Origin: Malassezia furfur
Lineage: Eukaryota
DNA: 36,016 bases
Assembly: GCA_052055015.1 (NCBI GenBank)
Contig: JBQJIT010000068.1
Direction: 5' to 3' (one strand)
The stretch's first letter is position 1, and every line of letters begins with the position of its first letter. Both the position numbers and the translations under genes were made by a program. The notes below the pieces were generated by a model that did not search any database, was not told the origin of the DNA, and saw only the letters and a program-made list of their open reading frames with translations. Positions 3,115 to 30,579 of this stretch are shown one piece after another.

Positions 3115-4708
3115 TCAGCGCCCGCCGTTGAACCGCTTCGACGCACCGTAGTCGTCCGCCTCGGGCGGTCCCCGCTTCTGCCCGCCACGGCCTGCGCGGC
3201 GATCGGACCGCGCACGGTCGCGGTCGCGCCGGCCATGCCGATCGCGGTCGCGGTCGCGGTCGCGGTCACGGTCCCGCCCGCCGCGCGGCGCATCGTCGTA
3301 CGCATACCGCTCGTCGTCGTATCGCGGCGTCGTCTGCCGCCGGTACCGGCGATCACTCTCGCCGTGCGGTGCGGATGCACCATAGTCCAGCGCATCGCCA
3401 GGACCCGCCTCGCTGTCCCGGTCGTTGTAGTACTCGCGCCGCGTCGCCGTAGGATGCAGCTCGGGCGCATATGCATCATCGTCGGGCGGCGGCGATCGGT
3501 CGTCTGCGCCCATACGCCCGTTCCGCCGCGACGCGTTTCCAGAGCGCGGCGCACTGCGGGTGTCGCGTCCGCCCCGACGAGAGCGCGCACCGTGCGCATC
3601 GCCGTCGTCGGGCTCGTGGCCGCTCCGTGCATCGTCCGCCGGCGGCACACCCCCAGGTGCGGCTGGCGGCGGCGCTGCACCGGCCGCCCAGGGCGGCACA
3701 TCCTGGCTCTCGGGCGGCGGCATGCCCATCATCGGCATGGCGTCGGACGGCGCACCTTGGGGTGCCCCCGGCGGCATCATCATCGGCCATTGCATCCCAG
3801 GCATTCCCATCATGCCCGGCGCAAACATTGCAGTCAGGTTCGCCATAGGGTTTTGTGCATCGCCCGATGCGCCCGGCGCGAATCCAGACTCGGCGCCGGC
3901 TTCGCCCTCGTTCGTAGCTTGCAGTGTGTTGGCAAACTCGGCCCGCGCCTGGCCCATGCGGTTCTTTTGCGCACACCACATCGCCCACGTTGCCTCATCA
4001 AACCCGTAGTTGAACCAGTCGCTCAGGTTGGCACCCGGCCGACGCCAGGGCTTTTCGGGCAGCGAATCGATGTCCACTTGGTATATGTTGAGTTTCGAGC
4101 TCGTATCGTCGTCAGTCTCGTAGATGGCATCCGTCGGCGGGTATTGCAGGGCCTCTGGCTTCGGCGACAACACCAACTCCGGCGCTGTAATGCCGGCCGT
4201 TGCCGGGGGGCCTTCGGGCTCGTCCGCATCCCCGGCCGCTGTCGAGACTGCGGGCTTCGCGGCCGGCGCCGGCGCCGGCGCAGAAGCGGGCACACTTGTG
4301 ACTGGTGCGGCTTGCGATGGCAGTGGTTCTGCTGCAGGACCGGGTACCGCAGGCACAGACGGCACGTCGTCGCCCGCCGGTGCATTCGTCGGCGCCTGGG
4401 TCGCAGGTGTCTCGGTCGCAGCTTTGCTGGGGCTCTTGATAGGCACGGGGGTAGGCGCATACGTTGCTGAGCGCGACGGGGGTACCGCAGGCGCATTCGG
4501 GTCGATAATGAACTCGATATCCTGTGGTCAGAAGAAAGGCACATACCGAATCGTCGCTGTCTTCCTCTTCGTCGTCGTCTGATGCGGGACCTTCGGGCGC
4601 CGCAGCAGGCACAGGGGCGCTCGGCGCTGCTGGCTGCTCCGTTGGAGCAGGTGCCGCAGGCGCAGCAGGGGCCTCGTCCCCGTACAGGAACGCGTCGTCG
4701 TCGTCCAT
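3115..4708 (-). CDS. FIP1: Pre-mRNA polyadenylation factor Fip1
   Basis: Exons 4708-4547 and 4521-3115 (25-nt intron 4522-4546). Acidic N-terminus MDDDDAFLYG...DDSDIEFIID, Fip1 motif EKPWRRPGANLSDWFNYGFDEATW, C-terminal RD dipeptide repeat. Confidence 0.93.
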
Positions 4709-4822
4709 CGCGTCTGGACCACGGCGATTCGGGGATCGAACTGGGAAGTATGCACACGAAAAGGCCGCGGGGCAAACCCCAGCGTGGCTGCAACGCCTCC
4801 TTACCTCCACGACCGTTCAGCC

Positions 4823-5267
4823 ATGACATCCGCAGCGGCCGGTCGCTTCAGCTCTTTCTGGAACGGGCCGACGGGTCCCAAGACGGGTATGTTGGATACC
4901 GCGTGCGTGCTTATCCAGTGTTCTTTTGGGCGCCTGCGATGAAGTGGGGCATTGTCCTGGCCGGGATCAACGACCTCTTCCGCCCGGCCGACCAGATCTC
5001 GGTCGCTCAGAACACGGCGCTTGCGCTCACCGGATCGATCTGGGTCCGGTATGTGCGTGCGTACTGACACAGCTATTGCTTCGTGATCACCCCGGTGAAC
5101 TACTCGCTTGCGGCTGTCAACTTCTTTGTCGGTTCGACCGGACTGGTGCAGCTGGCTCGCGTGGCTCAGTATGTGGGATATGCTCACACAGTTACCGTTA
5201 TACGCACCCTGAGGCGGCCGCAAAGCCCGCTGCTGTTGCGCCTTCGCCCGACACCAAACCGCACTGA
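4823..5267 (+). CDS. MPC2: Mitochondrial pyruvate carrier subunit 2
   Basis: Exons 4823-4886, 4919-5048, 5073-5168, 5192-5267 (introns 32, 24, 23 nt) give 121 aa with GPKTVFFWAPAMKWG...ALTGSIWVRYCFVITPVNYSLAAVNFF. Confidence 0.92.
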
Positions 5268-5535: not shown

Positions 5536-6311
5536 ATGGCCTCTTCGTTTCGGCAGACGGGCCGCAAAATCGTTGCGTATGTTTCGTGCATTCACACAGG
5601 ATCGGCCGCAACTTTGCTGACCATGCAAAAGAACTGAACAATGCGGTGCCGACGGAGCCGTTCTTCTTTCTGAAGCCGACGTCCAGCTACATTGGCTCTG
5701 GCGACGCGATTGAAATCCCGCGCGGCGTCGTGGCGCACCATGAGGGTAGGTGTATGGCTTATGGCAGTGGAGCTGGCCGTGGTCCTCGGGCAAAAAGCGC
5801 GCGATATCAAGGCATCGCAGGCCAACGACTACATCGGTGGTTATGGTACGTGGACATCATTCATTCAGCGCTCGCAATCGATATGACCGCACGGAATGTG
5901 CAGGATAAGGCGAAGAAGGCCGGACTGCCGTGGTCAACCGCCAAGGGATTTGACACCTTCACGCCGATCAGTGCATTTGTGCCGAAAGACGCGATTGCTG
6001 ACCCGAGCAACGTGAACCTCTGGCTCAAGGTCAACGACGAACTCAGGCAGAACGGAAACACGCAGGACATGATCTTTGACATCCCTGCCTTGCTGGCCCA
6101 CGTTTCGTCTATCATGACCCTGGATGTGGGTGACGTGATTTTGACCGGTACGTTGCTCCTTCTGACGCAAGGCACACCCAAGGGCGTTAGCCAAATCAAC
6201 CCTGGCGACCACGTCACCGCCGGGATGCAGCTGCCCGGCTCATCCAAGATCCTGGCCGAGCTCAAGCTGCGTGCTATGCAACGCGAAGGAGGCTTTGTTT
6301 TCCAGGGATAA
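5536..6311 (+). CDS. FAHD1: Fumarylacetoacetate hydrolase family protein (FAHD1/Fmp41-like acylpyruvase / oxaloacetate decarboxylase)
   Basis: Exons 5536-5576, 5600-5745, 5768-5845, 5869-6147, 6172-6311 (introns 23, 22, 23, 24 nt) give KIVAIGRNFADH, FFLKPTSS, HHEVEL, DMTARNVQ, KGFDTF and GDVILTGTPKGV. An upstream in-frame ATG exists at 5329. Confidence 0.92.
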
Positions 6312-6343
6312 TAACGAATACTATACAACTAGGTCATACTAGG

Positions 6344-6963
6344 TTATGCAGCAGATGACTGGCGCTGAAGTTAGTATAGGCTTGCATACCTGCTCCAATG
6401 CAGCCACCTTTTCGGCGAGCCGCTTGCGCTCCGTGCGGAGCTTCTCGAGGGTCCGGCGCTGCTCCTCAATCTCGGTCTGTGTCACGAGCGCAGCGACAGA
6501 CGGTGAGGACCGCGACGAGTCGCCAAGCACTCCCTGAGCTCCTGACCGTGCCTCAAGCTGCGCAAGCTCTTGTGTGGCCTGGTTGCGCAGCGTACGCGCG
6601 TGCCGCTCGTCATTGGTAAGCGCGTCCTCAGCGCGTACGATCAATTCACGCAGTAGCGGTGCAATTTCGGCGGCAACATGATCGCGTGCTTGCCGCACAT
6701 CGCGCTCCGACACGAGGTCAAAGTGCTGTTTTGTCAGTGGGTATGCACATACGCGTTGGCTCGCCATAGCGGTGCGTAGCCGATCAAAGTCGCCCGTGTG
6801 GTGCGCCAGAATTTGGTTGGTTTCGGCGACCTGCGTGAGGCCAGAAACGTACGATATCACATGAGGCTCGCACACTTTCGATGCATGCATGGATGCTGTT
6901 GAGCTGATGTACACTGGCCGCGGGGTTCCCGTACAGCGACTGTCGCGGCGGCATTCGCGCCAT
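6344..6963 (-). CDS. SPC19: DASH/Dam1 kinetochore complex subunit Spc19
   Basis: Exons 6963-6853, 6830-6753, 6725-6390, 6364-6344 (introns 22, 27, 25 nt), 181 aa. DFDRLRTAMASQRHFDLVSERDVRQARDHVAAEIAPLLRELI plus a C-terminal coiled coil (LEKLRTERKRL) match the Spc19 pattern. Confidence 0.8.
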
Positions 6964-7016
6964 GGTGGAGTCGCGTCGCGCCGGTGGAGGACAACACGGA
7001 TCGGCCGAACGCGTCC

Positions 7017-9430: not shown

Positions 9431-10570
9431 CTAGGCCCCTTGCTCGTTGCGCTTGCGCTTCCGCGGCTTAACCTTTTGTTTGGCACGGACCACCTCAGGT
9501 GTGTGTGCAGCGTCGCTAGAAGGCATCGGCTCACCGTCCTTCTCGGCGGGCACCACCGAGAGCCGCGACACGGCACCTCGGAATGTTTGTCGCGTCTCTG
9601 CTGTCAGCTAAGTAGTACGTACGGGCACGGATCAACAAAGATCGGCAAGTAGCAGAGAGGGTATCTTTCGCAGACGTAGGGGTCATGCCCATCAGTGTCG
9701 CCCTAGACATCAGCTTCGCAGTGGATACGTACAAGTTCATCACATCGTACGGCGCACGAAGACTCATCGCGGCCAGTGCGCCGCTCGAGAAAATTACGCC
9801 TTTGCCATTTGTCACTCGCAGAAGATCCCGCGCATTGCTGAAGAGATTGCGCCGCGCAGTTGGCACATCGCGCACCTCGCGCGATGGATCCAAAGCATCG
9901 CCGTAGGTGATTTCAAACACCACACCGTTGGCGAGCGCCGCGCCCACGGTGCTTCGCTTTAGATGGAAGGGAAGACGGGGGGAAGCGGCCAGATCCAGCG
10001 TGATAATGTCGATACTGAACGGCTTTAGTTCACTGAGTGTGATGCACGCATGCTGGAAAGCCATGTCGGTCAGAGGCATCACGGACAACAGGTCATACTG
10101 AAGAAGCGCATTACTGTTTGCCGTGACAAAGCCCGTGCCCGACTTGATCAGGTTATCTTTGTCTAGAACCACCGTGAGTCGGCTGAGTTGTGTGAGCGGC
10201 GAGGCTTGAACTGAACACTTGCCGCACACGCGGGGGTCCAGTTTAGGGAACGGAGGATGTGGACGTTGTTGTTGCCGGCGAAATGGGTTAATATATGTGG
10301 TTGGGTCAAGTTTACCGTAAACGGTTTGGTTGTAGGCAATCACATTGTATCCCACTGTATGAGTTTCAGACACATACATGACCGCAGCTCGTAGGTCAGC
10401 GTAGTGACGCGCTGCTGCTCCGCCGAAGAGAGCCGCGCCAGGGCTTCGTCGTCCGGGCGTTCCTCTTGTGTTGTTACTGAGGATGATGGATTGTTCTTTT
10501 TCCCCTTCTTATTCGGCGCATCCACAGCTAGACCTTGTGATGGCCACGGTATATTCAGATCGTAAAACAT
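9431..10570 (-). CDS. RPP1: RNase P/MRP subunit Rpp1 (p30)
   Basis: Exons 10570-10378, 10354-9733, 9702-9623, 9597-9431 (introns 23, 30, 25 nt). MFYDLNIPW start, GYNVIAYN, QLSRLTVVLD, YDLLSV, IDIITLD, GVVFEITY, GVIFSSGA...LRAPYDVMNL; basic C-terminus KPRKRKR. Confidence 0.92.
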
Positions 10571-10711
10571 GCTCTGTCGGCACGTCCTCTGCGAAGCGCG
10601 TTAGGTTCTCCGCGCAGGTGGAGGCAACGCGCGAAATTTCGTTCACGTGGCTGTGTGCGGCGTCTTGCAGCGTGGACATTGCATGGACACACTGTCGTCG
10701 GCGCGTCCACC

Positions 10712-11619
10712 ATGCCGCCGTACGTGGTGCTGCGACGCGATTATAGCACGGATGATCTCGTGCCTACAACAGATCAACGTAACACGATCATTGTTGCGTG
10801 CGTGTATGCCCTGGCTATCCTGCTCCTGGTAGGTCCGTGCGCGCAACCTCTTCTTACGCCAGTGGAACATCCCAATTCTCAAGGTGATTCTGTACCCATT
10901 TAAACTTTTGGTACGTTGACCATACTAAGTAAGACGGTCGGGTTCCATGAATTCTCTCACGCCCTGATGGGCGTACTCACATGCGCGAAAATTGAGTCGA
11001 TCCAGCTCGACCCCGACGAGGGCGGTGCAACGCGTATGCGCGGGGGCATCCACCTGCTCACGCTGCCGGCCGGCTACCTTGGATCGTCGCTGATTGGCGC
11101 CATTTTGATTGCATGCGGCTTCGATGAACGCGCTAGCAAGGTCGCCAGTCTCGTTGTGGCTGCCTTCTTCCTTGTGATGCTCTGGTGGGCAAGACGAAGC
11201 TGGGTGTACGTACGCGCGACTGATGGAAAAGTACCTGGCTCCTGATTATTTTCATGGTCGGATTGTTTGTCCTATTTTGGGTATGTGTCTGTACTTACCA
11301 CAGCTTGTCGAAAGCTCGGTCGCTCTGCGATACTTTGTGCTTTTTATTGGTGTGATGAATTGCCTGTACTCAGTGTGGGACATTTGCGATGACCTCGTCT
11401 TCCGCAAAGTGAACGAGTCAGATGCGACTGCTTTCGCCAAGCTGGTAGGCTGTTGCCCACCCCAAGTATGGGGCGTCGTCTGGCTACTAATCAGCATTGC
11501 TTTCTTTGCGGGCGGGATTCTGTATGTATTTTGGCTCACCCAGCGTCGGTCTCGTACTGTTCAAAACGCCCGTCTCAGAACAAAAATCGGACGACTTCCT
11601 GCGGGTTCCTACTCGTTAA
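10712..11619 (+). CDS. Peptidase M50B-like multi-pass membrane metalloprotease
   Basis: Exons 10712-10828, 10863-10910, 10934-11205, 11232-11280, 11304-11521, 11544-11619 (introns 34, 23, 26, 23, 22 nt), 259 aa. YPFKLLTVGFHEFSHAL (HExxH), GGATRMRGG, LPAGYLGS, YSVWDICDD and several hydrophobic helices. Confidence 0.88.
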
Positions 11620-11646
11620 ACAATGTTTCTATTGTACATAGCAACT

Positions 11647-15135: not shown

Positions 15136-15194
15136 GGGCTGGAGAACATGCACGGACGCGGGGTGGTTGCGCTGACTAAGCGCAAAGTAGGTAC

Positions 15195-16452
15195 ATGCTC
15201 CGCAACGGTGTGCGGCATACGATCTCCCCCGTACGCTTCACCCGCCCGCTGTTTCCTCGTTTGTGTAGGAGTCTTGTTCAGCTCAGGATGTCGGATATTG
15301 TGAACCTTGATCCACTTGTTGCCGAAAAGTTCAAGGCAGCCGTCGATGCCGGCGACGCCTTCTTTTTCGACTCGACCGTGCACATTACGGGCAATCAGGA
15401 CAAGAGCCACCCGCCTATTGCTTCGGTACCATGGCAAGTGCGCACTGTGCCTGCCCTTCTCAAGAAGCCTACTGCCAACAAGGAGGAGCCGAAAGATGAG
15501 AAGCCGAAGGACGAGAAGCCGAAGCAGAACCAGAAGGATGTGTTCGCTCCTCCCTATGTGCCGAATCTTCTCGTGAAAGAGTTTGCCGACTTTACTGTCC
15601 TGCTCAACAAGTACTGCGTGCTTCCTAAGCACTTCCTCATGGTGACCAAAGGTACGCCACTCGACTTACCTAGACTTTGTCAATCAGGAGCTTCCGCCGT
15701 CCCCAGAAATGCTTGCATCGGTGTACCTTGTAATTGAGAGGCATCGTGCGGAGCATCCTCAGGCGGAACTGCTTGGATTTTTCAACTGTGGCAAGGACAG
15801 TGGTGCGTCGCAGCCGCACTGTCACTTCCAGATGGTCGAGCTGGTACCCGAAAAGTCGACGATGGCCGTGCCGATTGAGAACCTGTTGCAGCACATTGAG
15901 CGTGACGGGAAGGAGTATAGTACGTGGTTAACTGACACAGGTGATGTACACTTGTTGCCTGTTCCGTGGCAGCATTTTGTCGTACTACTGGATCCCCCGA
16001 GCGACGAAACGCAGCTTTCGACCTATTTGGGACACCGCTTCACGCAGCTGCTTGACTGCATGTTTGCTGCCGCGCGCGACCTCAATCATATTCAAGGAAC
16101 AGAGCCGCGCCGCGGTCCGCCTCAGTTCAATATCTTGCTCACCAAGCGCGCGATGCACCTCATCCCGCGGCGCCAGGAGGGCTTTGACTTGAACACTACC
16201 GACTGGGCACCGTACAACAACGGGCAAGCACCGGAGCATACGGGTACACTCAGCGTAAATGCGCTCGGTATGTCTCTTACTGACTCAGGGTACGCGGGTC
16301 TCTTTTTGACACGGCACAAGGCGGAGCTGGAGGCGATGACCGACCCCGCCAATGCCCGCATTGCGCATGTGCTTGCCCAAACCGGCGTGCCGATTCCGAT
16401 CCAAGAAGGTACGGAGGCTCCCGCCGCCGACGAGAAAAAGGCCGATGCCTAG
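15195..16452 (+). CDS. Ap4A phosphorylase / ATP adenylyltransferase (Apa1/Apa2 family)
   Basis: Introns 15652-15673 (22 nt), 15920-15940 (21), 16268-16288 (21). Motifs DVFAPP, LLNKYCV, FFNCGKDSGASQPHCHFQ (HxHxQ), and SVNALGYAG after splicing. Two in-frame ATGs: 15195 and 15288. Confidence 0.9.
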
Positions 16453-16463
16453 CTTGGCATACA

Positions 16464-17850
16464 CTACATACCTTGGAATATACGAGAAATGTTGATAAAG
16501 AGTGCCAGCACCAGTACAGCTCCGCCCCAGAGCCCCAGGAAGAAGGCGGACGAGTGTAGAGTCGCGTTCGGCTCATCATCGTACATGCGGCGATACAGCA
16601 ATGCAGGGAGAATGAAGGAGATAGTCGTGCTTCCCACTGATCCAACGATGCCCAGCACAATCGACAGGTCGTCGATCAGCAGGCTCACTAGCAGGCCGGC
16701 AGTCATGAGCGCCAGCGTGAGGAGCGACCAGCGCCGATCGTTTACCTCGTAGTGAACCACCGGATCCATTTCGGCGGTTCCTGGGCCAAGCATGGACTCC
16801 TCTGTGTCTTCCGAGGAGAGGATGGTCGCATTCACCTCGAGCATGTTGATCAAACTCGCACGGCAAGGGTATAGTTGCATCGGATAGCTCGTGAGCGTCA
16901 GTGCGATCACGGAGAGCTTGCCGATGCTCACAAACAGGCTCGACGAAGGGTACATGGCAATAATGTTGTCACCCACCTGGGAGCCAAACGTCGCATATCC
17001 GACCGAGGCGACCACGACGTAGACCATCGCGCATGCGCCCAGCGAGACAATCGTCACAAGCGAAGAGCGCTTCACGGTACTGTCCCGAAGCTCGCTGTAC
17101 ACAGGCAGGATGTTTTGAGCGCATGTATACGCAAACACCATGATGGGGAAGGTACGGAGCACATCCGTAGAGAAGATCACCGCGGCGATCTCTCCACGAG
17201 GCGGCAGCGTCGCACGCGCCGTGCCCGACAAAAAGTAGTAAAGCATGATCACCAGCAAGTACACGACCGCGGCCATGTTCAGGTAGCCGATACCGCGCAT
17301 CTGGTGTAGCTTCCGGTAGAAGCACACGGGGCTGACTAGTGCCAGCGATACGATCACCCACAGCAGCTTGCTGAGGAAAAAGGCAGGTACGGTGTGCGTG
17401 TCGCCACGGATCGACTGTGCAAAGCTCAGGACCACCTGGGGCATCAGGTGCCCGCAAATCATCAGATAAGACACGCCTACGCCAAAGCACTGGGTCAGCG
17501 GTAGAGTAGCGCACCTTGACAAAGATAGTCACGTCAAAGTACCATACGGCCGAGGGCATCACCTGGCTCGTCATGTCGTAAAAGCTCTGCGGCCGGCGGT
17601 CCATGCGCACTTCGCACAGCTTGACGAGGTGCAGGCCAAAGTTGGTCACGACGGCGCACAGCAGCACCAGCACCGTGCCCAACAGCCATCCCATCGTCGC
17701 ATAGGCGTGCGGCAGTGCGAGCATGCCGGCGCCGATGATAGTGTTTGTCAGTCCGCTGATGCTCGACAGCACGGTCGCAGATCCGTGGACCTCCTCGCCA
17801 TCTTCGCCAAGCGCGACGGCGCCGCGGCGCTCCTGCGTCGGTTCGTGCAT
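16464..17850 (-). CDS. Vacuolar amino acid transporter (AVT5/6/7-like, Aa_trans family)
   Basis: Exons 17850-17515 and 17489-16464 (25-nt intron). SSISGLTNTIIGAGMLALPHA, KCFGVGVSYLMI, FAYTCAQN, GYATFG, SYPMQLYPCR, VGSVGSTTISFILP; about 11 hydrophobic segments. Confidence 0.9.
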
Positions 17851-17947: not shown

Positions 17948-19048
17948 ATGTCTGAGGAACACGCCGCGGAACCGCAGGAGATGGAGGAGGTCATCGGGCC
18001 CCTCCCCATCAGCAAGATGGAGGTAAGCGGTTGTGCTAATGTTAGGAATTCGGCATTTCGGCTTCGGACTGCAAGAAGCTCAAGGAGGCCGGCTTCCACA
18101 CGCTCGAGAGTCTCGCGTTTACCCCCAAGAAAACGCTGGTGGGGATCAAGGGCATGTCCGAGCAAAAAGTGGACAAGATCTTGAGTGAAGGTACGCGAGA
18201 CGCGCTCACCCAGCCGCCAAGCTCGTGCCGCTCGGCTTCACTACCGCAACCGAATATCATCAGCGCCGCTCGGATTTGATCACGATTACCACCGGTTCGC
18301 CTGCACTGGATCTTGTGATTGGCGGAGGTATGGAAACGGGAAGTATCACAGAACTCTTCGGCGAGTTCCGCACCGGCAAGAGCCAGATCTGCCACACACT
18401 TGCTGTCACCTGCCAGCTGCCTATCGATATGGGTGGTGGTGAAGGCAAGTGCCTATACATCGATACGGAGGGTACCTTCCGTCCGGTGCGTCTGCTGGCT
18501 GTCGCTGAGCGATTTGGCCTGGATGGAGAGGAGGTGCTCGACAACGTTGCGTATGCACGTGCCTACAATGCCGACCACCAACTCGAGCTCCTCGTTCAGG
18601 CAGCAGCCATGATGGCCGAGTCGCGGTTTGCGCTGCTGATCGTCGACTCGCTCACCTCGCTGTACCGCACCGACTTTGCGGGCCGCGGCGAGCTGTCGGC
18701 GCGTCAGACGCATCTCGCCAAGTTCCTACGTACGCTTCTGCGCCTCGCCGACGAGTTTGGTGTGGCAGTGGTGGTCACCAACCAGGTCGTGGCACAGGTG
18801 GACAATGCTGGGTTTGGTGGCATGGAAACAAAGAAGCCGATCGGCGGCAACATTGTGGCCCATGCGTCTACGACACGGTACGTTGCGCCCTAACGCAGTT
18901 TGTCACTCCGCAAGGGGCGCGGAAATCAGCGGATTTGCCGTGTGGTAGATTCCCCCTCCCTTCCCGAGGCTGATGCCGTGTTTGCCATCAAGCCCGAGGG
19001 CATCGCCGATCCAGTAGGTGGCGCATGCGCTGACCGCAGGACGAGTAG
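17948..19048 (+). CDS. RAD51: DNA recombinase Rad51
   Basis: Exons 17948-18022, 18046-18190, 18214-18877, 18899-19013, 19040-19048 (introns 23, 23, 21, 26 nt), 335 aa. Walker [45 protein letters not shown]. Confidence 0.97.
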
Positions 19049-19100: not shown

Positions 19101-20046
19101 ATGGCGTCCGAGGCACGCAAGGGCCTTGCGGCGCTCAGCGCGCGCGATGCTGCGCCACGCTTCCAGTCGCTGTGTGCTTCGACTTTTTCTGCATTGCAGG
19201 AGCGGATACGGCTCGGCCATGAAGTTGCTATGTCAACAGAGGGCAGCGAGCACGCTTTCTTGCGCACCTTTCCCTACTTCGCGCGCGATAAAACCATCGC
19301 CAAGAACTTGCATACCCTGATGGACGCGCTCGATGCTTGGAATGCAACGCATGCTAATGGCGATCTTCTACAGAGCGACGACGTGCCTACGCTTGAACAG
19401 ATCACAGACTGGACCGCAACCGTGCACCGGTTGGTGCATCTGCTGGGCGAGACGAACAACGAGTTGAACGACCCGCGCGGCACCGAAATGCTCAATGAGC
19501 TCCGAATTGCGTACGTCATTGTCTGACACAGTCATCCACACGTGTTTGGGCTGGATATGAAGGCTGATGCGCCGTCTGACACGGCGCCTATGTCGCCGAT
19601 GCCCGAGGCGACCGAGCTCGTCGAGCCGCTACCGGCGTCGCATCTTCCGCGCGCTGAACTGATGTCCCATGTCGGTGAGATGCCCTCGACTGGATTTGCG
19701 CGCGACGAAGACGACGACCGTTTCGCTGCCCAGCAATTCGCGCAGCAAAATTTGGCATTCCGCCAGCAAGACACGCACTTGGACCACCTAAGTGCCTCCA
19801 TTTCTCGACAGCATGAGCTAAGCCTGCGTATGAATGAGGAGCTAGAGCTTCACACGGATCTCTTGCACGAGCTTGATCGTGATGTTGATGACACGGGCCT
19901 GCGGTTGGGCGGTGCCAATGACCGCCTTGAGCGGTTTCGGCGGAGCATGAAGGAGCACGGTAAGTCGCGATGCTTACGCAGGCTCTGTATGGGTCATCTT
20001 TGTGCTGATCTTCGTGCTGGTACTACTTATCTCGCTATTCAAGTAG
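19101..20046 (+). CDS. SYN8: Qc-SNARE, syntaxin-8/Syn8-like
   Basis: Exons 19101-19510, 19532-19959, 19982-20046 (introns 21, 22 nt). SNARE motif [34 protein letters not shown]...; C-terminal TM anchor [18 protein letters not shown]. Confidence 0.8.
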
Positions 20047-20053
20047 AGGGGTA

Positions 20054-21114
20054 TCATGCATCGGTGAGCGGACAGCACTGTGTCATTCAGTCCACCTACC
20101 AGGAACTCGACGAACGCATGGCCTGAGGCGGCAACTGTAAGAGGTGCCGCGCTCCGTGTCATGGCCTGAGCGTGGTGACTTGCAATCATGAACTGCACGC
20201 TTAGCATCCCGTTCTCGTCGATGCGGAGCGATGTCTTGAGTGATGTCTTGATGGCCTGCAGCATGTACGCAACGCATTGCAGTGGGTATGCACATGCAAC
20301 CGACTCGACGCAGTCAAATTTCTCCGTGAGCTGGTTTTCATTGGGAAACGAGATCTTTGTGAGGTTCAAACGTACCTCGGTGCTCCCATGGCTGTTTTCG
20401 GTGCTTAGATCGAGTCCACCGCGCTCTGTGCGTCCTGTACGTGGACGGAAATGAACATGCACTTGGGTCTCGCCGCCCGCATCGAGCTCCTGGAACGCGC
20501 GGGCAAGATATTCCGACTGGGTCAGTGATGCACGCACCTTCATGATGACCTGCGCAACGGTTGTCTCAGGCGAGAACTGCAGGTCCGGCACCATGCTCGA
20601 GTCGAGCGTGCGCAGCCGAAAGTTCATGTCGATGCGGCCAGTGTGCAGCCCGACGCTAAGGGGTTCTCCAAAGTCGCGGTAGGTTATCTCGACGTAGTCA
20701 CCCCGCCGCCGCGCGTCCATACCCCGAGAATCGTTTGCATGCATCCGACCTTCAAACAGCGTCAGACATTGCACCATCGTTGACACGTTGAGCTCGAAGC
20801 TAATATAGGGTTGTGCGTCCTCGTCATCGCTGTCATCTCTGTTGGCCAGTTCCATCCAATTTCTTGGCGGCACGAACGAGTATTCGTCAAAGATGGACGC
20901 GTAGAGATATGCGTGCGCTGCATTAGCGCAGGGACCTACCCTGCACGGCCTTGTTCACTTCCGATACCACCTCGAGACCGGACGCAGAAATGGATATGGT
21001 CGCAAACTAGGTAAGAAGGCCACCTACTGCTGTGAAATTGACCGCGCGCAACATGGCGGTCAGCATAGATGCGTCCGCGACGCGCGCGTACAGCACGCCG
21101 CGCGCCGTAGTCAT
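20054..21114 (-). CDS. RAD1: 9-1-1 checkpoint clamp subunit Rad1 (Ustilago Rec1 / S. cerevisiae Rad17 family)
   Basis: Exons 21114-21028, 21006-20940, 20917-20538, 20516-20376, 20354-20100, 20077-20054 (introns 21, 22, 21, 21, 22 nt), 317 aa. ISASGLEVVSE...QAHAYLYASIFDEYSF, IMKSEYLARAFQELD, KTSLRIDENGMLSVQFMI, FVEFLCCP. Confidence 0.9.
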
Positions 21115-21175
21115 GGCCAATGCGGCGTGGTTGGATCACGTGCCACAAAACGACGAAGCACAGACGCGAACCTCG

Positions 21176-22247
21176 ATGGCTTCGTCGCAAGCACCGCAGA
21201 AGTCGGCGCCGCTGACGTGCCATGGGCACACGCGACCAGTAGTGCACCTGGAGCATTCAGTGAAACAGGACGACGGGTCGTACCTGTTGCTTTCGAGCTG
21301 CAAGGATGGGAATCCTATGTACGTGGCGTCCCTCACACAGGCTTCGTGACTGGCTGGGCGACTGGGTTGGCACCTTCCTGGGTGCGTGTGTGTTACTGAC
21401 GCAGGCCACAAAGGTGCAGTATGGAGCGCAAAACTTTCTGAAGGCGACGCGGCGCGTGCCATCACAGGGAGTGCCGATTTTTCTGCAAAAGTGTGGGATA
21501 CGTACACGGGCGAGTGCGTGCAGACCTTTACGCACAATCACATTGTGCGCAGCGTCGCTGTGAACAGCGCAGGAACGCAGGTGCTTACTGGCGGTCACGA
21601 GAAAAAATTGCGCCTGTTTGATTTGCAGCACATAAAGGGAAACACCGCGGACGATGCACAGGTATTCGCCCCGAGGTCGGGATCCGATGACGGCACGACA
21701 CACAGCGGTACAATTCGCAGCGTCGTGCTGGGCCGCGGAACCAGTGGTGCCGAAAATGTGGTGGTGACGGCCGCCGAGGACAAGTGCATCCAGTGGTGGG
21801 ACATGCGCTCGATGCAGCCAGTGTACGAGCTCAACCTCGATGAGCCCTTTTCGTCCATGGAGCGCTGTGCGGGTGTCTATGGCGAGTACATTACGATCAC
21901 CGCCGGTAACCAGGCGATGTTTGTCGACTTGATGACGTATGTAAACACGCCGCGCTGACCACAGGCACGAAATTGTCAAGCAACACACGCTCGACATTGC
22001 GCCCTCGTCCGTGTACTTGCACCCCACGAAAGGTGACAAGTTTGTCGCTGGGTGCAGTGCAGACGAGTGGGTGCGTGTTTATGACTTTGAGACGGCCAAG
22101 GTGCTCGACCTGAGCAAGGGACACCATGGCCCCGTTCATTGCGTAAGCTATGCACCCGATGGCGAAGTTGCTGCTAGCGGCAGTGAGGATGGTACGATCC
22201 GTCTGTGGCAGACGAATCCCGGGACCAAGTACGGCCTCTGGTCGTAG
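21176..22247 (+). CDS. STRAP: WD40 protein STRAP/UNRIP (serine-threonine kinase receptor-associated protein)
   Basis: Exons 21176-21318, 21341-21381, 21405-21936, 21965-22247 (introns 22, 23, 28 nt). [69 protein letters not shown]...YGLW. Confidence 0.92.
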
Positions 22248-22468: not shown

Positions 22469-23408
22469 ATGAGTCTGTCCAGCACCTCGGCACGGATAGA
22501 AGGCAAAGCGATGGAGCGCCGGTATCAGTGTCCATACAGCCCCTGCACCAAGTCGTTTGCACGGCAGTCGGATTTGAACAGGTACGCTACCCACTCACGC
22601 CAGGCACGTCCGAATCCATACCAACGAACGGCCGTACGCATGTGCGTACCCAGGGTGCAACCGACGGTTCGTGCAGAGCAGCTCGCTGCGTGTCCACCTT
22701 AACGTCCACACGGGTGCGCGACCGTACACTTGCGAGGTCTGTTCGCGCGCCTTTAGTGACACGAGCTCGTTGTCGCGGCATCGGCGCTCCCACACGGGGG
22801 TGCGCCCATACAAGTGCGAGTACGCAGGATGTGACAAAGAGTTTTGCCGTCGGACAACCTTGCGGCTCCACGTCCAGCGCGACCACGGCGAAACGTCGCC
22901 CAACGGGGCGTGGTCGTGCAACGACAGCGCGCAAGCCGATATGCCCAACATGCCGCATGCGCAGGCAATCCAGTGCAATGAGCCAGTGCCCTACAATGCG
23001 TCGCAGCTATTGGAAGACAACCTCGTCTTCCCCACGTGTGGCCAAACCCAAGCAACGAGTTCGCCTGTGCACGCCCATCTCTCGGAGCGCCGCATCGGGC
23101 CACAGCCGGCGCCGCTCCTTGTGTCTCCACCCCAAGCGCAGCTTGCCCCGCAAACGTCACTATCTTCGGTGTATGATCTGAGCGCACTGCAATCGGCCAT
23201 GTGCTTGAGCGCGCTGTCGTCGCCCGAGTGCTGGAGTTCGCCGGTGACCCCGGGCTTTCCGCTGACGCCCGTTACAGCTGTTTCCGCGCCGACTGATCCA
23301 TCCAAACACGCGGGTGTTCAATCCCAATATCTGGACCCAGGTGCATGGTCAATTCCATTTGTAGTGCATGGCGATGCGTCGCGCTATGCCTCCCACGTTT
23401 TTCTGTAG
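22469..23408 (+). CDS. Four-finger C2H2 zinc-finger transcription factor (possibly Znf2/Cos1-like)
   Basis: Exons 22469-22581 and 22604-23408 (22-nt intron). Fingers CPYSPC..FARQSDLNRHVRIH, CAYPGC..FVQSSSLRVHLNVH, CEVC..FSDTSSLSRHRRSH, CEYAGC..FCRRTTLRLHVQRDH with TGxRPY-type linkers; low-complexity tail. Subfamily call is inference. Confidence 0.9.
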
Positions 23409-26500: not shown

Positions 26501-29410
26501 CGCGGCGAGGTGTTCAACCTGAACGGCATCATTTCGGGCCATCGCGCAGCGATCCCTGTCATCTCGAGCAAGACGTTGCAGCAATATGCAGGCACCGATG
26601 CGACCAACATCTTCCCGGTGCAGGTGAATGCGCTGTGCAACGGCGTCACGGGCAGCATCTCGCCGTGGGTCACGCTCGACAACAACAACAACACGGACGC
26701 CAACGCACAGTACCACGACTTCCGTGCGTACCGCGGCGTGGATGTGCGCCCCGACTGGTACTACGAGCAGATGTGGTACATGCGCAGCCGGTTCCGGGTA
26801 GGAATGATTGGGTACACGCCCAAGGAGATCGACAACGCTAAGCAGGACGGGCGGACGCTCGTGGTGTACAACAAGGAGATTTACGAGATCACCGACTACA
26901 TCTCGCAGGGCAACCAGGGTGGCGTGATGGTGCCCGACGGCATGGCCCCGCCGCCTGACCTGGACCGCACGATCCTTGCGCCCGAGATTGTGAGCCTTAT
27001 GGCGCAGAACCCGGGTGCGGACGTCACACAGCAGCTCGACCGCCTGCCGCTCGATCCCGCCGTCTTGGGACGCCAGCGCGTGTGTTTGCGCAACCTGTAC
27101 TTTATTGGGAAGCTCGACGAGCGCAACTCGGCGCGGTGCACCTTTTCCAAGTACATCCTGCTCGCGCTGTCGGTGGTGATGGTCGCCACGATCGGGTTCA
27201 AGTTCTTTGCGGCGCTGCAGTTCGGTGGCGCACGGCCCCCCGAGGAGCAGGACAAGTTTGTCATCTGCCAGGTGCCGTGTTACACCGAGGATACCGACTC
27301 GATCCGCAAGACGGTCAATTCGCTCGCCAAGCTCAAGTACGACGACCGGCGCAAGCTGCTCATCCTCATCTGTGACGGCAACATTGTGGGTGCGGGCAAC
27401 GATGCACCCACGCCGCAGCTCGTCCTCGACCTGCTCGGCGCTGACACGAGCCAGGAGGCAGAGCCCTACAGCTTTGTGTCGCTCGGCGAGGGCAGCAAGC
27501 AGCACAACATGGCGCGCGTCTACAGCGGGTTGTACGAGCATGCCGGGCACATGGTGCCCTACCTGGTGATCGCCAAGTGTGGGCGGCCCACCGAGACCAC
27601 CAAGCCTGGCAACCGCGGGAAGCGCGACTCGCAGCTGGTGCTGATGCGCTTCCTCAACAAGGTGCACTTTGGCCTGCCCATGTGCCCGCTCGAACTTGAG
27701 ATGTACCATCAGATCAAGAACGTGATCGGTGTCAACCCGTCGTTCTACGAGTACATTCTGCAGGTGGACGCCGACACCGAGGTCGAGCCCACGGCGCTCA
27801 CGCGCATGGTCGCGAGCTTTGTGCACGACAAAAAGATTATTGGGTTGTGTGGCGAGACGGCCATCTCCAACGAGCAGCAGAGCCTCACGACGATGCTCCA
27901 GGTGTACGAGTACTACATCTCGCACCACATGGTCAAGGCGTTTGAGAGCCTGTTCGGCTCGATTACGTGTCTGCCGGGGTGCTTCTCCATGTTCCGCATC
28001 CGCACGCCGGACACGCAGCGCCCACTGTTCATCGCCAACAGCGTGCTGGAGGACTACGCGGAGAACCGCGTCGATACCCTGCATCTCAAGAACCTGCTGT
28101 ACCTCGGCGAGGACCGCTACCTCACCACGCTTGTGCTCAAGCACTTCCCAGACTACAAGACGGTGTTTGTGCGCCATGCCCGCTGTACCACCACCGTGCC
28201 GGACAGCTGGCGCGTGCTTCTCTCGCAGCGGCGCCGCTGGATCAACTCGACCGTGCACAATCTCGTCGAGCTGCTGCGTACGCCGCAGCTGTGTGGTTTC
28301 TGCTTGTTTTCGATGCGCTTCGTCGTGATGCTCGACCTGCTTTCGACCATCATTGCGCCCGTCACGATCGGCTACCTCGTCTACCTCGTCGTGGTGGTCT
28401 CCGTGGACGGCGGCAGCATTCCGTTCACCTCGATCATGCTCCTCGCGGCGATCTACGGCTTCCAGGCGATCATCTTCCTGCTGCACCGGCGGTTTGACAT
28501 GATTGGATGGATGGTGGTGTACATTTTGGCGCTGCCTATCTGGTCGCTCATCCTCCCGCTGTACTCCTTCTGGCACATGGATGACTTCTCGTGGGGCAAC
28601 ACGCGTATCGTCACGGGAGAGCACGGCGAGAAGCTCGTGGTGCACAACGAGGGCATCTTTGACCCCGCCGAGATCCCGCACATGACGTGGGAAGAGTACG
28701 AAAACGGTCTCTGGGAGAAACGGACGGGCGCATCCGACCCCGAGGCGTTTGCGCGCCACGTGCCGATGAGCAAGTCGACACGCGCGCTACTCCAGCGCAA
28801 CCCGAGCTTGTATGGGTACGCATCGCACCCCGTGCCAGAGTACACGGAGCCCGAGGCGATGTACGCCAGCTACTACACCGACGACTCCGACCCCCGCCAG
28901 TCCAAGCCACCGCTCGATGTCGACGGTCCGGACGCGTCGTGGGCCGCGCACGAATCCGCCTCGCTGCTCCCGCACGCTGGTGGCTACGATATGGCGTCGT
29001 ATGCGCAGCGGCCCATGAGCCACGCGACCTACAACTTCTCGTCCATGGGACACGGCATGGACTACAAGGACGAAGCGTATGCCCTCGATCCGCCGCACGC
29101 CGAGCCGCTCATCAACACGCATCCGGCGCCGATGCAGCCAAGCGCGTACACCTATGAGCCGGCCGCACCGACGCCGGCGCCCGCGCCCTCATCCCCGACC
29201 CCGCCGTCCTTCGCCGAGGCACGGCGCAACCGACTGCCGCGCGACGAAGTGATCCGCTACGACATCCGCCAGATCATTGCGCACTGCGACCTGACGACTG
29301 TGACCAAGCGGCAGGTGCGCAACCAGCTCCAAGAGCGCTATGGGTGCCCCATTGACGAAAAGAAAGCTTACATCAATGCGCAGATCGAAGCGGCGCTGCG
29401 CGACGTGTGA
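23585..29410 (+). CDS. MCS1: Class V myosin-motor chitin synthase (Mcs1/CsmA type)
   Basis: Intronless 1941 aa ORF. Myosin head with P-loop GETASGKSE; TM and cytochrome-b5-like region (AWREKL); catalytic core QVPCYTE, GNRGKRDSQ, VDADT, TCLPGCF, LGEDRYLT, SQRRRWINST, WHMDDFSWGNTR; C-terminal DEK_C (DLTTVTKRQVRNQL). Confidence 0.96.
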   Translation: MTDAQVPSTGPAAGGAEDELATQLCHRYYQGIFYTQIQESVLVVLNPFHTPVDVNGEETLREYCRAYRDMRYTTSDRSVPPHIFRTASDAYFYMQRTGQDQALFFLGETASGKSEARRLAMRAIVSLSVALPGKRGARLGAQLPAALFAMECFGNAESDENRNASGMALYNELQFSKNGRLVGMKMLNYYLERSRVSPLRSMERTFHVFYMLIAGASAEDRNRWRFDDVPSFRLVTAGGRGAPVSSAEQLAGRYTRLLHALDVVGMPPVQRAAMLDVLAAILHLSNLDFVRDSGPHTAARVTSEEPLYIAASLLGIGASALANAVTHLTKVVRGDLCTIMLDANGAAANRDALMRMLYSLLFAWLNEFLNQHLSNDQFHAYIGLLDTPGWTNRVHNSLDQFAVNFMADTVHRHMAATLLERRTDEMDREGLSHMAPLPVASDEAERLRLLTHFPGGLVHIMDDQTRRRPRKTDETMVAAMQKRWVNHAALHIDASDSLGPPSFVVTHFHGEVSYDPHAWLERNDESFALEHVSLLRGADRAADGTTGMGSSSAFIRNLFKTAAVWTQLPMPDGANLQGTQAALRPLRAPSTIRARRNGTLRGAASGRARDADADEDTYGSDLQRAPTVKKHEMPCVLGELQNALGTLMEVVDDAKPWFVLCVRPNTNQLANQCEARMVRRQAHALGLARLRHGHARDYSVTLTYTEFCDRYGTLPGLDSLQLLGAPSAEAKMRVSDACALMNWTDAYVAMGIHKVFLSHDVFRELEDSLRQRDPEEVQYTLRKAAAEDDTPVQDDPYSPYVDAPRAVDDLPNPFEVVDAPPAAAFTYAGEVDAEETHSLLQRDAASEKGWADESVFMDDALDAGPGDTGTADGPRVTEKLRVSTLRRHWVALTWLFTWWIPSLVLKRFKRFKRSDVRMAWREKLLINMIIWFICLCSIFVIVFLGNVVCPTQHLYSTTELSGYKGKQAYTAIRGEVFNLNGIISGHRAAIPVISSKTLQQYAGTDATNIFPVQVNALCNGVTGSISPWVTLDNNNNTDANAQYHDFRAYRGVDVRPDWYYEQMWYMRSRFRVGMIGYTPKEIDNAKQDGRTLVVYNKEIYEITDYISQGNQGGVMVPDGMAPPPDLDRTILAPEIVSLMAQNPGADVTQQLDRLPLDPAVLGRQRVCLRNLYFIGKLDERNSARCTFSKYILLALSVVMVATIGFKFFAALQFGGARPPEEQDKFVICQVPCYTEDTDSIRKTVNSLAKLKYDDRRKLLILICDGNIVGAGNDAPTPQLVLDLLGADTSQEAEPYSFVSLGEGSKQHNMARVYSGLYEHAGHMVPYLVIAKCGRPTETTKPGNRGKRDSQLVLMRFLNKVHFGLPMCPLELEMYHQIKNVIGVNPSFYEYILQVDADTEVEPTALTRMVASFVHDKKIIGLCGETAISNEQQSLTTMLQVYEYYISHHMVKAFESLFGSITCLPGCFSMFRIRTPDTQRPLFIANSVLEDYAENRVDTLHLKNLLYLGEDRYLTTLVLKHFPDYKTVFVRHARCTTTVPDSWRVLLSQRRRWINSTVHNLVELLRTPQLCGFCLFSMRFVVMLDLLSTIIAPVTIGYLVYLVVVVSVDGGSIPFTSIMLLAAIYGFQAIIFLLHRRFDMIGWMVVYILALPIWSLILPLYSFWHMDDFSWGNTRIVTGEHGEKLVVHNEGIFDPAEIPHMTWEEYENGLWEKRTGASDPEAFARHVPMSKSTRALLQRNPSLYGYASHPVPEYTEPEAMYASYYTDDSDPRQSKPPLDVDGPDASWAAHESASLLPHAGGYDMASYAQRPMSHATYNFSSMGHGMDYKDEAYALDPPHAEPLINTHPAPMQPSAYTYEPAAPTPAPAPSSPTPPSFAEARRNRLPRDEVIRYDIRQIIAHCDLTTVTKRQVRNQLQERYGCPIDEKKAYINAQIEAALRDV

Positions 29411-29459
29411 GCGCCAGCGCGTGGACGAACATCGATGAGCGAAACTGTACATTTTTTTT

Positions 29460-30579
29460 CTAGCGCATGATTTCCTCGTAGATCAATCGTTTCAGCTCCT
29501 CGCGCGAAAGCGGTGCCTTGGCCGAGTCGGCGTCAAAGAAGCTCGGATCCAGCGGCTCCGCATCCGGTTCGTCGTTGGGGTCATGGTAAGGCTCGAGGTA
29601 GGGGTGAGCCAGCGCCTCTTCGACGGTGATGCGCTTCCGAGGCGAGAACTCGAGAAGCCGCTCGAGCAAGTCGATGGCAAGCGGGTCGGCGTTCGGGAAG
29701 AGCGTCGCAAAGTTTTTGCGCTTGCAGAACGGAAGCGAGCGGATGTAGTCGCGCGACCGTGCCGAGTTGATCGCGTAGAAGTCGTCCAGCGACGGAGTGC
29801 CCAGTACTTCGAGGATGAGCGAGAGCTGATGATGGTAGTCGCGCCCAGGGAACAGCGGGCGGCCAGACAGCATCTCGGCAAAAATGCAGCCGACGGACCA
29901 GAGGTCAATGGCTTTGGTATATTCCTTGAAGGTGAGCATGATTTCCGGCGCGCGGTACCAGCGTGTCGCGACATATTCCGTCAGGAACGCCTTGCCATCG
30001 GGCTCCGGCTGATCAGCACTGCGTGCAAGACCAAAGTCGCAGATCTTCAGGTCGCAGTTGGCGTTCAGCAGCAAGTTGCTCGGCTTCAGGTCGCGATGCA
30101 AAACGCCCGCCGAGTGCAGTGCCTTGAGGCCACGCAGAATCTGGTACACGAAGTACTGGTAGTGGTCGTTGGACAGATTTTGCGTACGGATCACACGGTG
30201 CATGTCCGTCTCCATGAGCTCCTGGATAAGGTGCACCTCGGTGAACGACTCGAGCGATGCGGGCCGAATGATGTCGAGAATCGAGATGATATTTTCGTGA
30301 TGAAAGTGGCGCAGAAGATGGATTTCCCGCAGCGTGCGCAGGCAGAACATCTGGTGATCAAACGGCGAGATGCGTTTGACAGCGACGCGCGTGGATGTGG
30401 GCAGGTGCACGGCCGAACTGGGTGAGCAATGGACCAACGTACTACACCACACCGTAGGCGCCCTCGCCTACCGTCTTAATCAGGCGGTACGTTCCGCCGA
30501 GCTGCGGCCCCACAGTGCCATCCGTGGCTACCGGTACAGCGGCGGTCGTGCCTGCATGTGTAGGGTCGGCGTTGTTCAT
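29460..30579 (-). CDS. KPP2: Fus3/Kss1-type MAP kinase (Kpp2/Ubc3 ortholog)
   Basis: Exons 30579-30443 and 30417-29460 (25-nt intron 30418-30442). [36 protein letters not shown] activation loop ([14 protein letters not shown]), [20 protein letters not shown]. Confidence 0.93.

Follow-up and report, generated by a model that had tools for sequence, protein, structure and literature searches.

Micro-introns in a 36-kb segment of the Malassezia furfur genome: probable U2-type introns shrunk close to a spliceosomal minimum

The stretch of DNA considered here, hereafter the window, comprises 36,016 nucleotides (nt) of Malassezia furfur (contig JBQJIT010000068.1 of NCBI assembly GCA_052055015.1) and carries about 20 eukaryotic genes, whose content was established by Pfam scans of all stop-to-stop open reading frames (ORFs) of at least 70 amino acids (aa). 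Fourteen of them, among others for Fip1, a mitochondrial pyruvate carrier (MPC), Rad51 and a protein kinase, contain 39 GT-AG introns that were located between positions 4522 and 30442 by a motif scan, per-gene models and one ortholog alignment. The genes without intron-bearing models include those for a SNF2/RING helicase, a PXA/PX sorting nexin and a myosin-chitin synthase as well as a PAS and a Sel1-repeat gene, and two genes situated between Spc19 and RNase P p30 have no family match. With a median length of 23 nt and a mean of 23.8 nt, the introns are very probably ordinary U2-type GT-AG introns that go back to ancestral fungal intron sites and have been reduced nearly to the smallest size that the spliceosome accepts.

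Candidates were obtained by scanning both strands for GT(A/G)NG(T/C)...yTnAy...AG and were kept gene by gene where one open frame runs from ATG to stop. Scan and models led to 38 introns, while the 39th (Rad1, 20078-20099) was exposed by the conserved ortholog C-terminus '...AFVEFLCCPL...'. A whole-strand dynamic programme that combined codon scores with introns was dropped, as false long introns fused neighbouring genes in DNA rich in G and C. The resulting lengths are 21 nt (seven introns), 22 nt (nine), 23 nt (nine), 24 nt (two), 25 nt (five) and 26 nt (two), with 27, 28, 30, 32 and 34 nt occurring once each. Hence, 36 of the 39 introns fall below 30 nt and 25 do not exceed 23 nt, while none in the present window is shorter than 21 nt. 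Phases are evenly represented (14/13/12), and all 14 coding sequences (CDSs) consist of a whole number of codons. The donor is invariant at G1, T2 and G5, with A (36 introns) or G (three) at position 3 and T (33) or C (six) at position 6; the most frequent hexamers are GTACGT (13), GTATGT (11) and GTAGGT (six), followed by nine others. Acceptors are CAG in 31 introns and AAG or TAG in four each, and the introns have a G+C content (GC) of 52%. A previous reading of the letters alone, referred to below as the sequence-only reading, had proposed that 14 genes need 39 introns, with every model in whole codons. The independently rebuilt set agrees with this, reproduces the proposed length histogram, the median of 23 nt and the outer coordinates 4522 and 30442 exactly, fits the proposed donor rule GT(A/G)NG(T/C) in 39 of 39 cases, and bears out the sharp lower edge at 21 nt within the window.

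Table 1. Intron-bearing coding sequences of the window and their introns. Positions are window coordinates; L001 and L002 are two contigs from other Malassezia lineages (see text), and the lengths given for them are those of the corresponding introns.
Feature	Position	Strand	Size	Effect if retained	Evidence and comparison
Fip1 CDS	3115..4708	-	522 aa		Pfam Fip1
Fip1 intron	4522..4546	-	25 nt	frameshift	
MPC CDS	4823..5267	+	121 aa		Pfam MPC
MPC intron 1	4887..4918	+	32 nt	frameshift	L001, same codon and phase, 33 nt
MPC intron 2	5049..5072	+	24 nt	internal stop	MPC profile spans junction; L001 29 nt
MPC intron 3	5169..5191	+	23 nt	frameshift	L001 29 nt
FAHD1-like (FAA) hydrolase CDS	5536..6311	+	227 aa		Pfam, PDB alignment
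FAA-hydrolase intron 1	5577..5599	+	23 nt	frameshift	L001 25 nt
FAA-hydrolase intron 2	5746..5767	+	22 nt	frameshift	profile 5-55 / 63-87; L001 27 nt
FAA-hydrolase intron 3	5846..5868	+	23 nt	frameshift	profile 63-87 / 89-179
FAA-hydrolase intron 4	6148..6171	+	24 nt	in frame, no stop	8-residue gap in human FAHD1
DASH subunit Spc19 CDS	6344..6963	-	181 aa		identical to NCBI M. furfur protein
Spc19 intron 1	6831..6852	-	22 nt		NCBI M. furfur identity; L001 28 nt
Spc19 intron 2	6726..6752	-	27 nt	in frame, no stop	NCBI identity; L001 25 nt
Spc19 intron 3	6365..6389	-	25 nt	frameshift	branch motif TACTAAC; NCBI identity
RNase P/MRP p30 CDS	9431..10570	-	353 aa		Pfam, PDB alignment
RNase P p30 intron 1	10355..10377	-	23 nt	frameshift	L002 32 nt
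RNase P p30 intron 2	9703..9732	-	30 nt	in frame, no stop	Rpp30 gap; L002 26 nt
RNase P p30 intron 3	9598..9622	-	25 nt (alternative 22)	frameshift	L002 30 nt
Peptidase M50B-like CDS	10712..11619	+	259 aa		Pfam, homolog alignment
M50B intron 1	10829..10862	+	34 nt	frameshift	gap-free junction; L002 24 nt
M50B intron 2	10911..10933	+	23 nt	internal stop	gap-free junction; L002 25 nt
M50B intron 3	11206..11231	+	26 nt	frameshift	gap-free junction; L002 23 nt
M50B intron 4	11281..11303	+	23 nt	frameshift	gap-free junction
M50B intron 5	11522..11543	+	22 nt	frameshift	gap-free junction; L002 25 nt
Ap4A phosphorylase CDS	15288..16452	+	366 aa		Pfam, ortholog alignment
Ap4A phosphorylase intron 1	15652..15673	+	22 nt	frameshift	orthologs continuous; L002 26 nt
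Ap4A phosphorylase intron 2	15920..15940	+	21 nt	in frame, no stop	ortholog alignment; L002 27 nt
Ap4A phosphorylase intron 3	16268..16288	+	21 nt	in frame, no stop	L001 33 nt, L002 27 nt
Amino-acid transporter CDS	16464..17850	-	453 aa		Pfam
Amino-acid transporter intron	17490..17514	-	25 nt	frameshift	Aa_trans 3-91 / 95-379
Rad51 CDS	17948..19048	+	335 aa		Pfam, spliced alignments
Rad51 intron 1	18023..18045	+	23 nt	frameshift	L001 33 nt; other fungi 48-88 nt
Rad51 intron 2	18191..18213	+	23 nt	frameshift	L002 30 nt; other fungi 48-88 nt
Rad51 intron 3	18878..18898	+	21 nt	internal stop	profile 1-205 / 207-244; L002 26 nt
Rad51 intron 4	19014..19039	+	26 nt		L001 28 nt, L002 25 nt
Putative tail-anchored SNARE-like CDS	19101..20046	+	300 aa		frame model; no Pfam match
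SNARE-like gene intron 1	19511..19531	+	21 nt	internal stop	frame evidence only
SNARE-like gene intron 2	19960..19981	+	22 nt	frameshift	L002 26 nt
Rad1 checkpoint clamp CDS	20054..21114	-	317 aa		identical to NCBI M. furfur GLX27_000472
Rad1 intron 1	21007..21027	-	21 nt	internal stop	NCBI identity; L002 23 nt
Rad1 intron 2	20918..20939	-	22 nt	internal stop	NCBI identity; L001 25 nt, L002 24 nt
Rad1 intron 3	20517..20537	-	21 nt	in frame, no stop	NCBI identity; 7 residues missing in orthologs
Rad1 intron 4	20355..20375	-	21 nt	in frame, no stop	NCBI identity; 7 residues missing in orthologs
Rad1 intron 5	20078..20099	-	22 nt		conserved ortholog C-terminus; NCBI identity
WD40 protein CDS	21053..22247	+	373 aa		Pfam WD40
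WD40 gene intron 1	21319..21340	+	22 nt	frameshift	L002 32 nt
WD40 gene intron 2	21382..21404	+	23 nt	frameshift	L002 29 nt
WD40 gene intron 3	21937..21964	+	28 nt	internal stop	
C2H2 zinc-finger CDS	22469..23408	+	305 aa		Pfam
C2H2 zinc-finger gene intron	22582..22603	+	22 nt	frameshift	L002 22 nt
Protein kinase CDS	29460..30579	-	364 aa		Pfam Pkinase
Protein kinase (MAPK-like) intron	30418..30442	-	25 nt	internal stop	Pkinase starts at exon 2

The internal layout of the introns is as narrow as their length distribution. As judged from the motif, 37 of the 39 carry a branch site of the CTNAY type, the site reading CTAAG in one of the remaining introns and ATGAC in the other; the best motifs are CTGAC (13 introns), CTCAC (eight) and CTTAC (five), and the remainder are mostly other CTNAY variants. 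Positions 16, 17 and 18 each hold the inferred branch A in nine introns, position 19 in five, position 20 in three and positions 22-28 in four; it falls at 16-20 in 35 of the 39 and never before position 16. Its distance to the 3' end of the intron is 5 nt in 25 cases, 6 nt in 11 and 7-8 nt in three. In every intron, the 3' splice site coincides with the first AG whose end lies 5 nt or more past the inferred branch A, and two introns skip a nearer AG, located at +3 and +1, respectively. The floor of 21 nt follows from these two limits, since a branch A at position 16 or later plus an AG at least 5 nt further add up to 16 + 5, which is exactly the geometry of all seven 21-nt introns. Branch motif and AG are only 2-5 nt apart, an interval too short for a 3' pyrimidine tract. 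In this sense, the absence of a polypyrimidine tract claimed from the sequence alone is correct; 5' of the branch motif, a pyrimidine run does occur in a few introns, the longest run measuring 7-10 nt in four of the 39.

These introns may accordingly be described by four elements: a 6-nt donor GTA(C/T/G)GT, a spacer of 6-10 nt, a yeast-like branch site CTNA(C/T) and the 3' AG. The donor would engage in normal pairing with U1 and U6, and CTNAY would pair with U2. As the stretch between branch and AG cannot accommodate a pyrimidine tract, distance from the branch probably decides which 3' site is used. In budding yeast, the 3' site is likewise chosen by its proximity to the branch according to a first-AG rule, and Trichomonas, whose branch and 3' motifs are fused, offers a further parallel. 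The 21-nt floor would then reflect the geometry of the spliceosome. What was found agrees with the U2-type class, i. e. GT and AG ends throughout, a GTRNGY donor suited to pairing with U1 and U6, a yTnAy-type branch motif ahead of the 3' site, and a reading frame and conserved protein that are restored upon removal. Within this window, the introns also have the properties of ultra-short-intron genomes such as those of ciliates, Trichomonas (type B), myxozoans and microsporidia, with a typical length below 30 nt, little spread and an abrupt lower limit.

Alternatively, as put forward in the sequence-only reading, tract-less micro-introns might be the product of a reduced spliceosome that has lost or truncated the U2AF large subunit, SF3b or U1 accessory proteins. 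This would be in line with the distance of 2-5 nt from branch motif to AG, too small for a pyrimidine tract, and with the close spacing of 5' site and branch site, as elements within approximately 10 nt of each other might crowd the early recognition complexes. Yet, the donor and branch motifs are strong and canonical, which speaks for normal pairing with U1, U6 and U2. Moreover, the ciliate Stentor, whose introns measure merely 15-16 nt, is described as keeping homologues of U2AF1 and U2AF2 and all small nuclear RNAs (snRNAs) (PMC9505925), and short-intron myxozoans reportedly retain conserved factors for the 3' site (PMC13644364). A literature search on Malassezia and U2AF returned no relevant paper. 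By analogy with these lineages, factor loss would not be required for the micro-introns of M. furfur, and we consider a reduced spliceosome quite improbable compared with a canonical machinery acting on shrunken introns.

The architecture clearly exceeds chance expectation. A motif made up of the donor, yTnAy with its A 5-8 nt from the end, a base other than G before the AG and a total length of 12-40 nt has 53 matches on both strands of the window, compared with 13.2 +/- 3.9 (maximum 28) in 200 dinucleotide shuffles. In the band of 21-26 nt, 36 matches face 3.3 (maximum 9) in the shuffles. The motif captures 37 of the 39 introns; among the remaining 16 matches, seven are nested in true introns and nine are independent, about as many as expected by chance. 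None of the independent candidates in the window is shorter than 21 nt, save for an 18-nt in-frame match in the chitin synthase ORF (26990-27007, + strand). Its branch A would lie at position 11 and thus break the spacing seen in all 39 introns, and it is regarded as a chance match. Also rejected was a 23-nt candidate at the 3' end of the transporter gene (16449-16471, - strand), which lacks a branch motif, would remove the natural stop and would extend the transporter into the antisense of the neighbouring gene.

Several lines of evidence indicate with high probability that the segments are real introns. If retained, 24 of them would shift the frame and eight would introduce an in-frame stop, so that 32 of the 39 break the frame or end it. 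In the case of Rad51 intron 4, splicing yields a protein of 335 aa, compared with a frame running on to 503 aa without it. The spliced models of Rad1 (317 of 317 residues) and Spc19 (181 of 181) are identical to the NCBI M. furfur entries 'hypothetical protein GLX27_000472' and 'DASH complex subunit spc19', and these identities cover eight of the 39 introns; at both loci, the window thus cannot be told apart from M. furfur. Pfam profiles continue over the exon ends in MPC (16-57 and 59-88), Aa_trans (3-91 and 95-379), Rad51 (1-205 and 207-244), FAA_hydrolase (5-55, 63-87 and 89-179) and Peptidase_M50B (24-115 and 135-200), while the Pkinase match starts with profile position 18 at the first residue of exon 2. 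All five junctions of the M50B gene are free of gaps against 13 cluster representatives. From this evidence and from the positional conservation in other Malassezia lineages and other fungi described below, we infer that all 39 introns are actually spliced.

The seven introns that would remain in frame without a stop deserve separate consideration, as some of them could be short lineage-specific coding insertions or segments that are spliced only at times. Retention would keep the frame, and unspliced ORF-style protein calls (P0001, P0016 and P0070) contain such segments. All seven are nevertheless supported by homologues, each insertion corresponding to an exact gap there, and all seven bear the complete architecture of donor, branch and acceptor. 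Human FAHD1 (6fog) lacks exactly the eight residues of 6148-6171, inside the conserved 'ILTG/TPKGV' (the slash marks the junction), and human Rpp30 (6ahr) lacks exactly the ten residues of 9703-9732. The nine residues of Spc19 intron 2 are missing from orthologs. In an alignment of Ap4A phosphorylases with 12 rows, the 11 gene-model orthologs from Malassezia and smut fungi have neither 7-residue insert, both of which are present only in the unspliced ORF call P0016. In addition, four of the seven are missing from NCBI M. furfur proteins, and four have introns of different length at the same position in L001 or L002. Coding insertions or occasional splicing are thus a very improbable explanation for any of these segments. 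Concerning introns with a length divisible by three in general, seven of 11 lack an in-frame stop. In ciliates, introns of this kind, which would be invisible if retained, are reportedly depleted; the seven of 11 found here hence give no sign of a ciliate-type depletion, albeit in a small sample.

Some points weigh against the main interpretation. The branch points were inferred from the motif. As 39 introns from one 36-kilobase (kb) window are considered, the floor and both spacing rules may have exceptions elsewhere in the genome. Four introns, i. e. those of Fip1 (4522), the first of the SNARE-like gene (19511), the third of the WD40 gene (21937) and that of the protein kinase (30418), were placed by frame and stop logic alone, the last one being partly helped by the start position of the Pfam match. 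For p30 intron 3 (9598-9622), an alternative AG would give an equally in-frame intron of 22 nt, and its length of 25 nt presupposes the 5-nt rule. Finally, PDB alignments of the Ap4A phosphorylase with yeast Apa2 and of Spc19 with Chaetomium Spc19 by themselves left the in-frame introns of these genes unsettled; the matter was settled by the ortholog alignments.

With regard to the genes themselves, the 14 intron-bearing ones are short (121-522 aa) and contain 2.9 introns per kb of CDS. The seven intronless genes include all long ones, namely those for the chitin synthase (1941 aa), the nexin (approximately 1162 aa) and the SNF2 protein (867 aa) as well as the PAS and Sel1 genes. An intronless ORF of 372 aa (7757-8875, - strand) shows the strongest codon bias in the window; its product abounds in Gly, His and Thr, contains recurring 'HH...V' segments and had no Pfam or NCBIfam match. 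The putative label 'SNARE' was read from the hydrophobic C-terminal tail of a protein that had no Pfam match. For the WD40 protein, the SNARE-like protein and the two genes without family match, generic WD40 matches were all that PDB and NCBIfam searches returned, if anything. The WD40 protein (21053-22247) might be STRAP/UNRIP-like, STRAP/UNRIP being a partner of the SMN complex in the assembly of small nuclear ribonucleoproteins. Rfam and transfer RNA scans of the window had no match and hence revealed no snRNA, and no spliceosomal gene is found among the genes of the window placed by Pfam.

The genes are densely packed. The stops of the convergent SNARE-like (ending at 20046) and Rad1 genes (starting at 20054 on the opposite strand) are 7 nt apart, and those of the Ap4A phosphorylase (16452) and transporter genes (16464) 11 nt; the 3' untranslated regions must therefore overlap. 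The 22-nt intron at 19960-19981 of the SNARE-like gene lies within such a crowded convergent zone. In divergent pairs, start codons are separated by 53 nt (Spc19 and an unknown gene), 152 nt (nexin and Ap4A phosphorylase) and 97 nt (transporter and Rad51), which implies very short, shared promoters. The GC of the window ranges from 53 to 71%, with 53-54% at 10001-16000 (M50B, nexin and start of the Ap4A phosphorylase gene) compared with 59-71% elsewhere. In L001, the nexin gene was not found between the M50B and Ap4A phosphorylase genes.

The lengths can be compared with those of other Malassezia lineages. Rad51 exon 3, used as the query of a metagenome scan, led to two syntenic Malassezia-lineage contigs, L001 (52% GC; nearest named Ap4A phosphorylase from M. 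nana, 57%) and L002 (54% GC; nearest named one from M. equina, 74%), with L003 giving the same matches as the latter. Introns were placed on them with a custom protein-to-DNA spliced aligner, which in a self-test recovered the four FAA-hydrolase introns of the window. For 27 of the 39 window introns, L001 or L002 has an intron at the same codon and in the same phase. Three of these introns count for both contigs, and in the resulting 30 orthologous pairs from 13 genes the window intron is shorter in 24, equal in one and longer in five. The medians are 23 nt in the window and 26.5 nt in the other lineages (Wilcoxon p = 0.0005; p = 0.005 for L001 with n = 11 and p = 0.02 for L002 with n = 19). 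The branch A has a median position of 19 in L001/L002 versus 18 here and a median distance to the intron end of 7 versus 5 nt, and the segments on both sides of the branch are each 1-2 nt shorter here. Window introns are missing from the aligned regions in 24 of 35 cases in L001 and eight of 27 in L002, which are upper bounds, since the aligner needs a good motif. The two contigs have four (L001) and seven (L002) introns of their own, among which those of 41, 53 and 84 nt could have arisen from misalignment.

The shortfall of about 3 nt might conceivably be an effect of sampling or method, the introns of M. furfur having the same lengths as those of other Malassezia. The comparison comprises only 30 pairs from 13 genes, introns that lack a good motif escape the aligner, introns of 22-24 nt also occur in L002, and published means or medians of 30 may include mis-called longer introns. 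Against this stand the 24 shorter introns among the 30 pairs with the Wilcoxon value given above and the shortening of both intron segments. We therefore regard the absence of a genuine difference as unlikely. The 13 genes provide a first indication that M. furfur may sit lower than the two other lineages.

That these introns are old is suggested by Rad51. From 77 non-Malassezia loci of the Rad51 scan, 18 other fungal loci were drawn, three of which look like one organism. At the position of intron 1 (after codon 25, phase 0), 15 of the 18 have an intron, and at that of intron 2 (after codon 73, phase 1) 12 of the 18. These introns measure 48-88 nt and share codon and phase with the 23-nt introns of the window, which would identify the micro-introns as shrunken old fungal introns. 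Extended to the whole genome, this leads to the more tentative proposal that the M. furfur lineage carries thousands of inherited introns on a hard floor of 21 nt, with a branch A at position 16 or later and an AG 5-6 nt beyond it, and that this floor is measurably lower than in other Malassezia, which in our judgement falls somewhat short of an even chance. If true, M. furfur, a transformable and CRISPR-tractable basidiomycete yeast, would have the shortest introns of any fungus that is still intron-rich. It would then be a natural system in which to measure how small canonical U2-type introns can physically become, perhaps with factors adapted at the branch site and the 3' site.

Short introns as such are well documented in the genus. 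The curated gene set of M. sympodialis comprises 5,350 introns with a mean of 30 bp, of which 5,271 (99%) are supported by RNA sequencing (RNA-seq), and curation lowered the mean from 65 to 30 bp (PMC5389616). For M. restricta, an average of 37.2 and a median of 30 bp are given (PMC9241646), and its annotation used minimum intron settings of 20 and 15 (PMC6473144). An average of 76-79 bp was obtained for M. globosa with MAKER (PMC4634964), and published genus means accordingly differ between pipelines, from 79 down to 30 bp (PMC4634964, PMC5389616). Malassezia genes have been described as having 'very short introns' (PMC7426719), and in M. furfur, which is transformable, introns were annotated with RNA-seq (10.1101/638429). 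Together with the identities to NCBI proteins, these values establish that the micro-introns are already known and annotated in the genus. The phenomenon is hence not new, given that the Rad1 and Spc19 micro-introns are already in public annotation and that the genus is described with short introns. In the passages of the Malassezia papers that deal with introns, means or medians only are given, and full-text literature searches returned, in the passages retrieved, no description of a length floor, of branch/acceptor spacing, of species differences or of spliceosome content for Malassezia. The present analysis would thus add the 16 + 5 architecture, the rule of the first AG at 5 nt, the evidence for shrunken ancestral introns and the lower position relative to two lineages.

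The expectation that gene predictors mishandle such introns is borne out by in-frame inserts and a gene fusion in annotated Malassezia proteins. Rad1 of M. yamatoensis carries 'VGAPLIQ' at intron 3 and that of M. psittaci 'VCCLLTK' at intron 1, while the Ap4A phosphorylase of M. yamatoensis has an 8-residue insert at intron 1. In M. brasiliensis, P0020 fuses M50B to the Ap4A phosphorylase. These records (P0004, P0005, P0018 and P0020 from the three species) are probable annotation errors in public databases. In such genomes, default gene finders that accept no intron below 30-40 nt will disrupt proteins or lengthen them unnoticed.

Among known systems, the annotated genomes of M. sympodialis, M. 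restricta and M. furfur at NCBI are closest, belonging to the same genus and having the same kind of intron, with a mean or median of 30 bp in the relatives (PMC5389616, PMC9241646) versus a median of 23 nt in this window. Other fungi share the codon and phase of the Rad51 introns and differ by their greater length. Outside the fungi, myxozoans and dicyemids (medians of 22-27 bp) resemble M. furfur in that canonical introns have independently shrunk below 30 bp in compact genomes; these are animals with reduced splice-site motifs, whereas the motifs here are strong (PMC13644364). In the same source, the passage that lists short-intron lineages names ciliates, microsporidia and dicyemids, without Malassezia (PMC13644364). 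The type B introns of Trichomonas (23-25 nt) are similar in length, in their extended GTAYGT-like donor and in having no pyrimidine tract, with the branch motif at a constant short distance from the AG (PMC12316389). Yet, they number only tens and have a fixed 12-nt 3' motif to which the branch is fused (PMC12316389), in contrast to the thousands of introns per genome (M. sympodialis), the degenerate CTNAY and the 5-6 nt to the AG in Malassezia. A 23-nt intron of Trichomonas has been called 'one of the shortest known' (PMC12316389), a length that 25 of the 39 introns described here do not exceed.

Ciliates such as Paramecium (approximately 25 bp) and Stentor (15-16 nt) likewise possess GT-AG introns of narrow length pressed on a lower bound (PMC5014332, PMC9505925), although these are AT-rich with a weak branch consensus, compared with 52% GC and a strong CTNAY in M. 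furfur. The spacing found here offers a testable formulation of how short introns can be when a spliceosome works with strong yeast-like signals, and does so in a transformable organism. In Stentor, the branch A occupies position 10 of 15 and hence also lies 5 nt from the 3' end, while the segment from the 5' site to the branch measures 9 nt, as opposed to at least 15 nt here (PMC9505925). As both systems share this distance, the comparison suggests that approximately 5 nt may be a general minimum for the second step of splicing, whereas the minimum of the 5' segment would differ between lineages, with 9 nt in Stentor and 15 nt in M. furfur.

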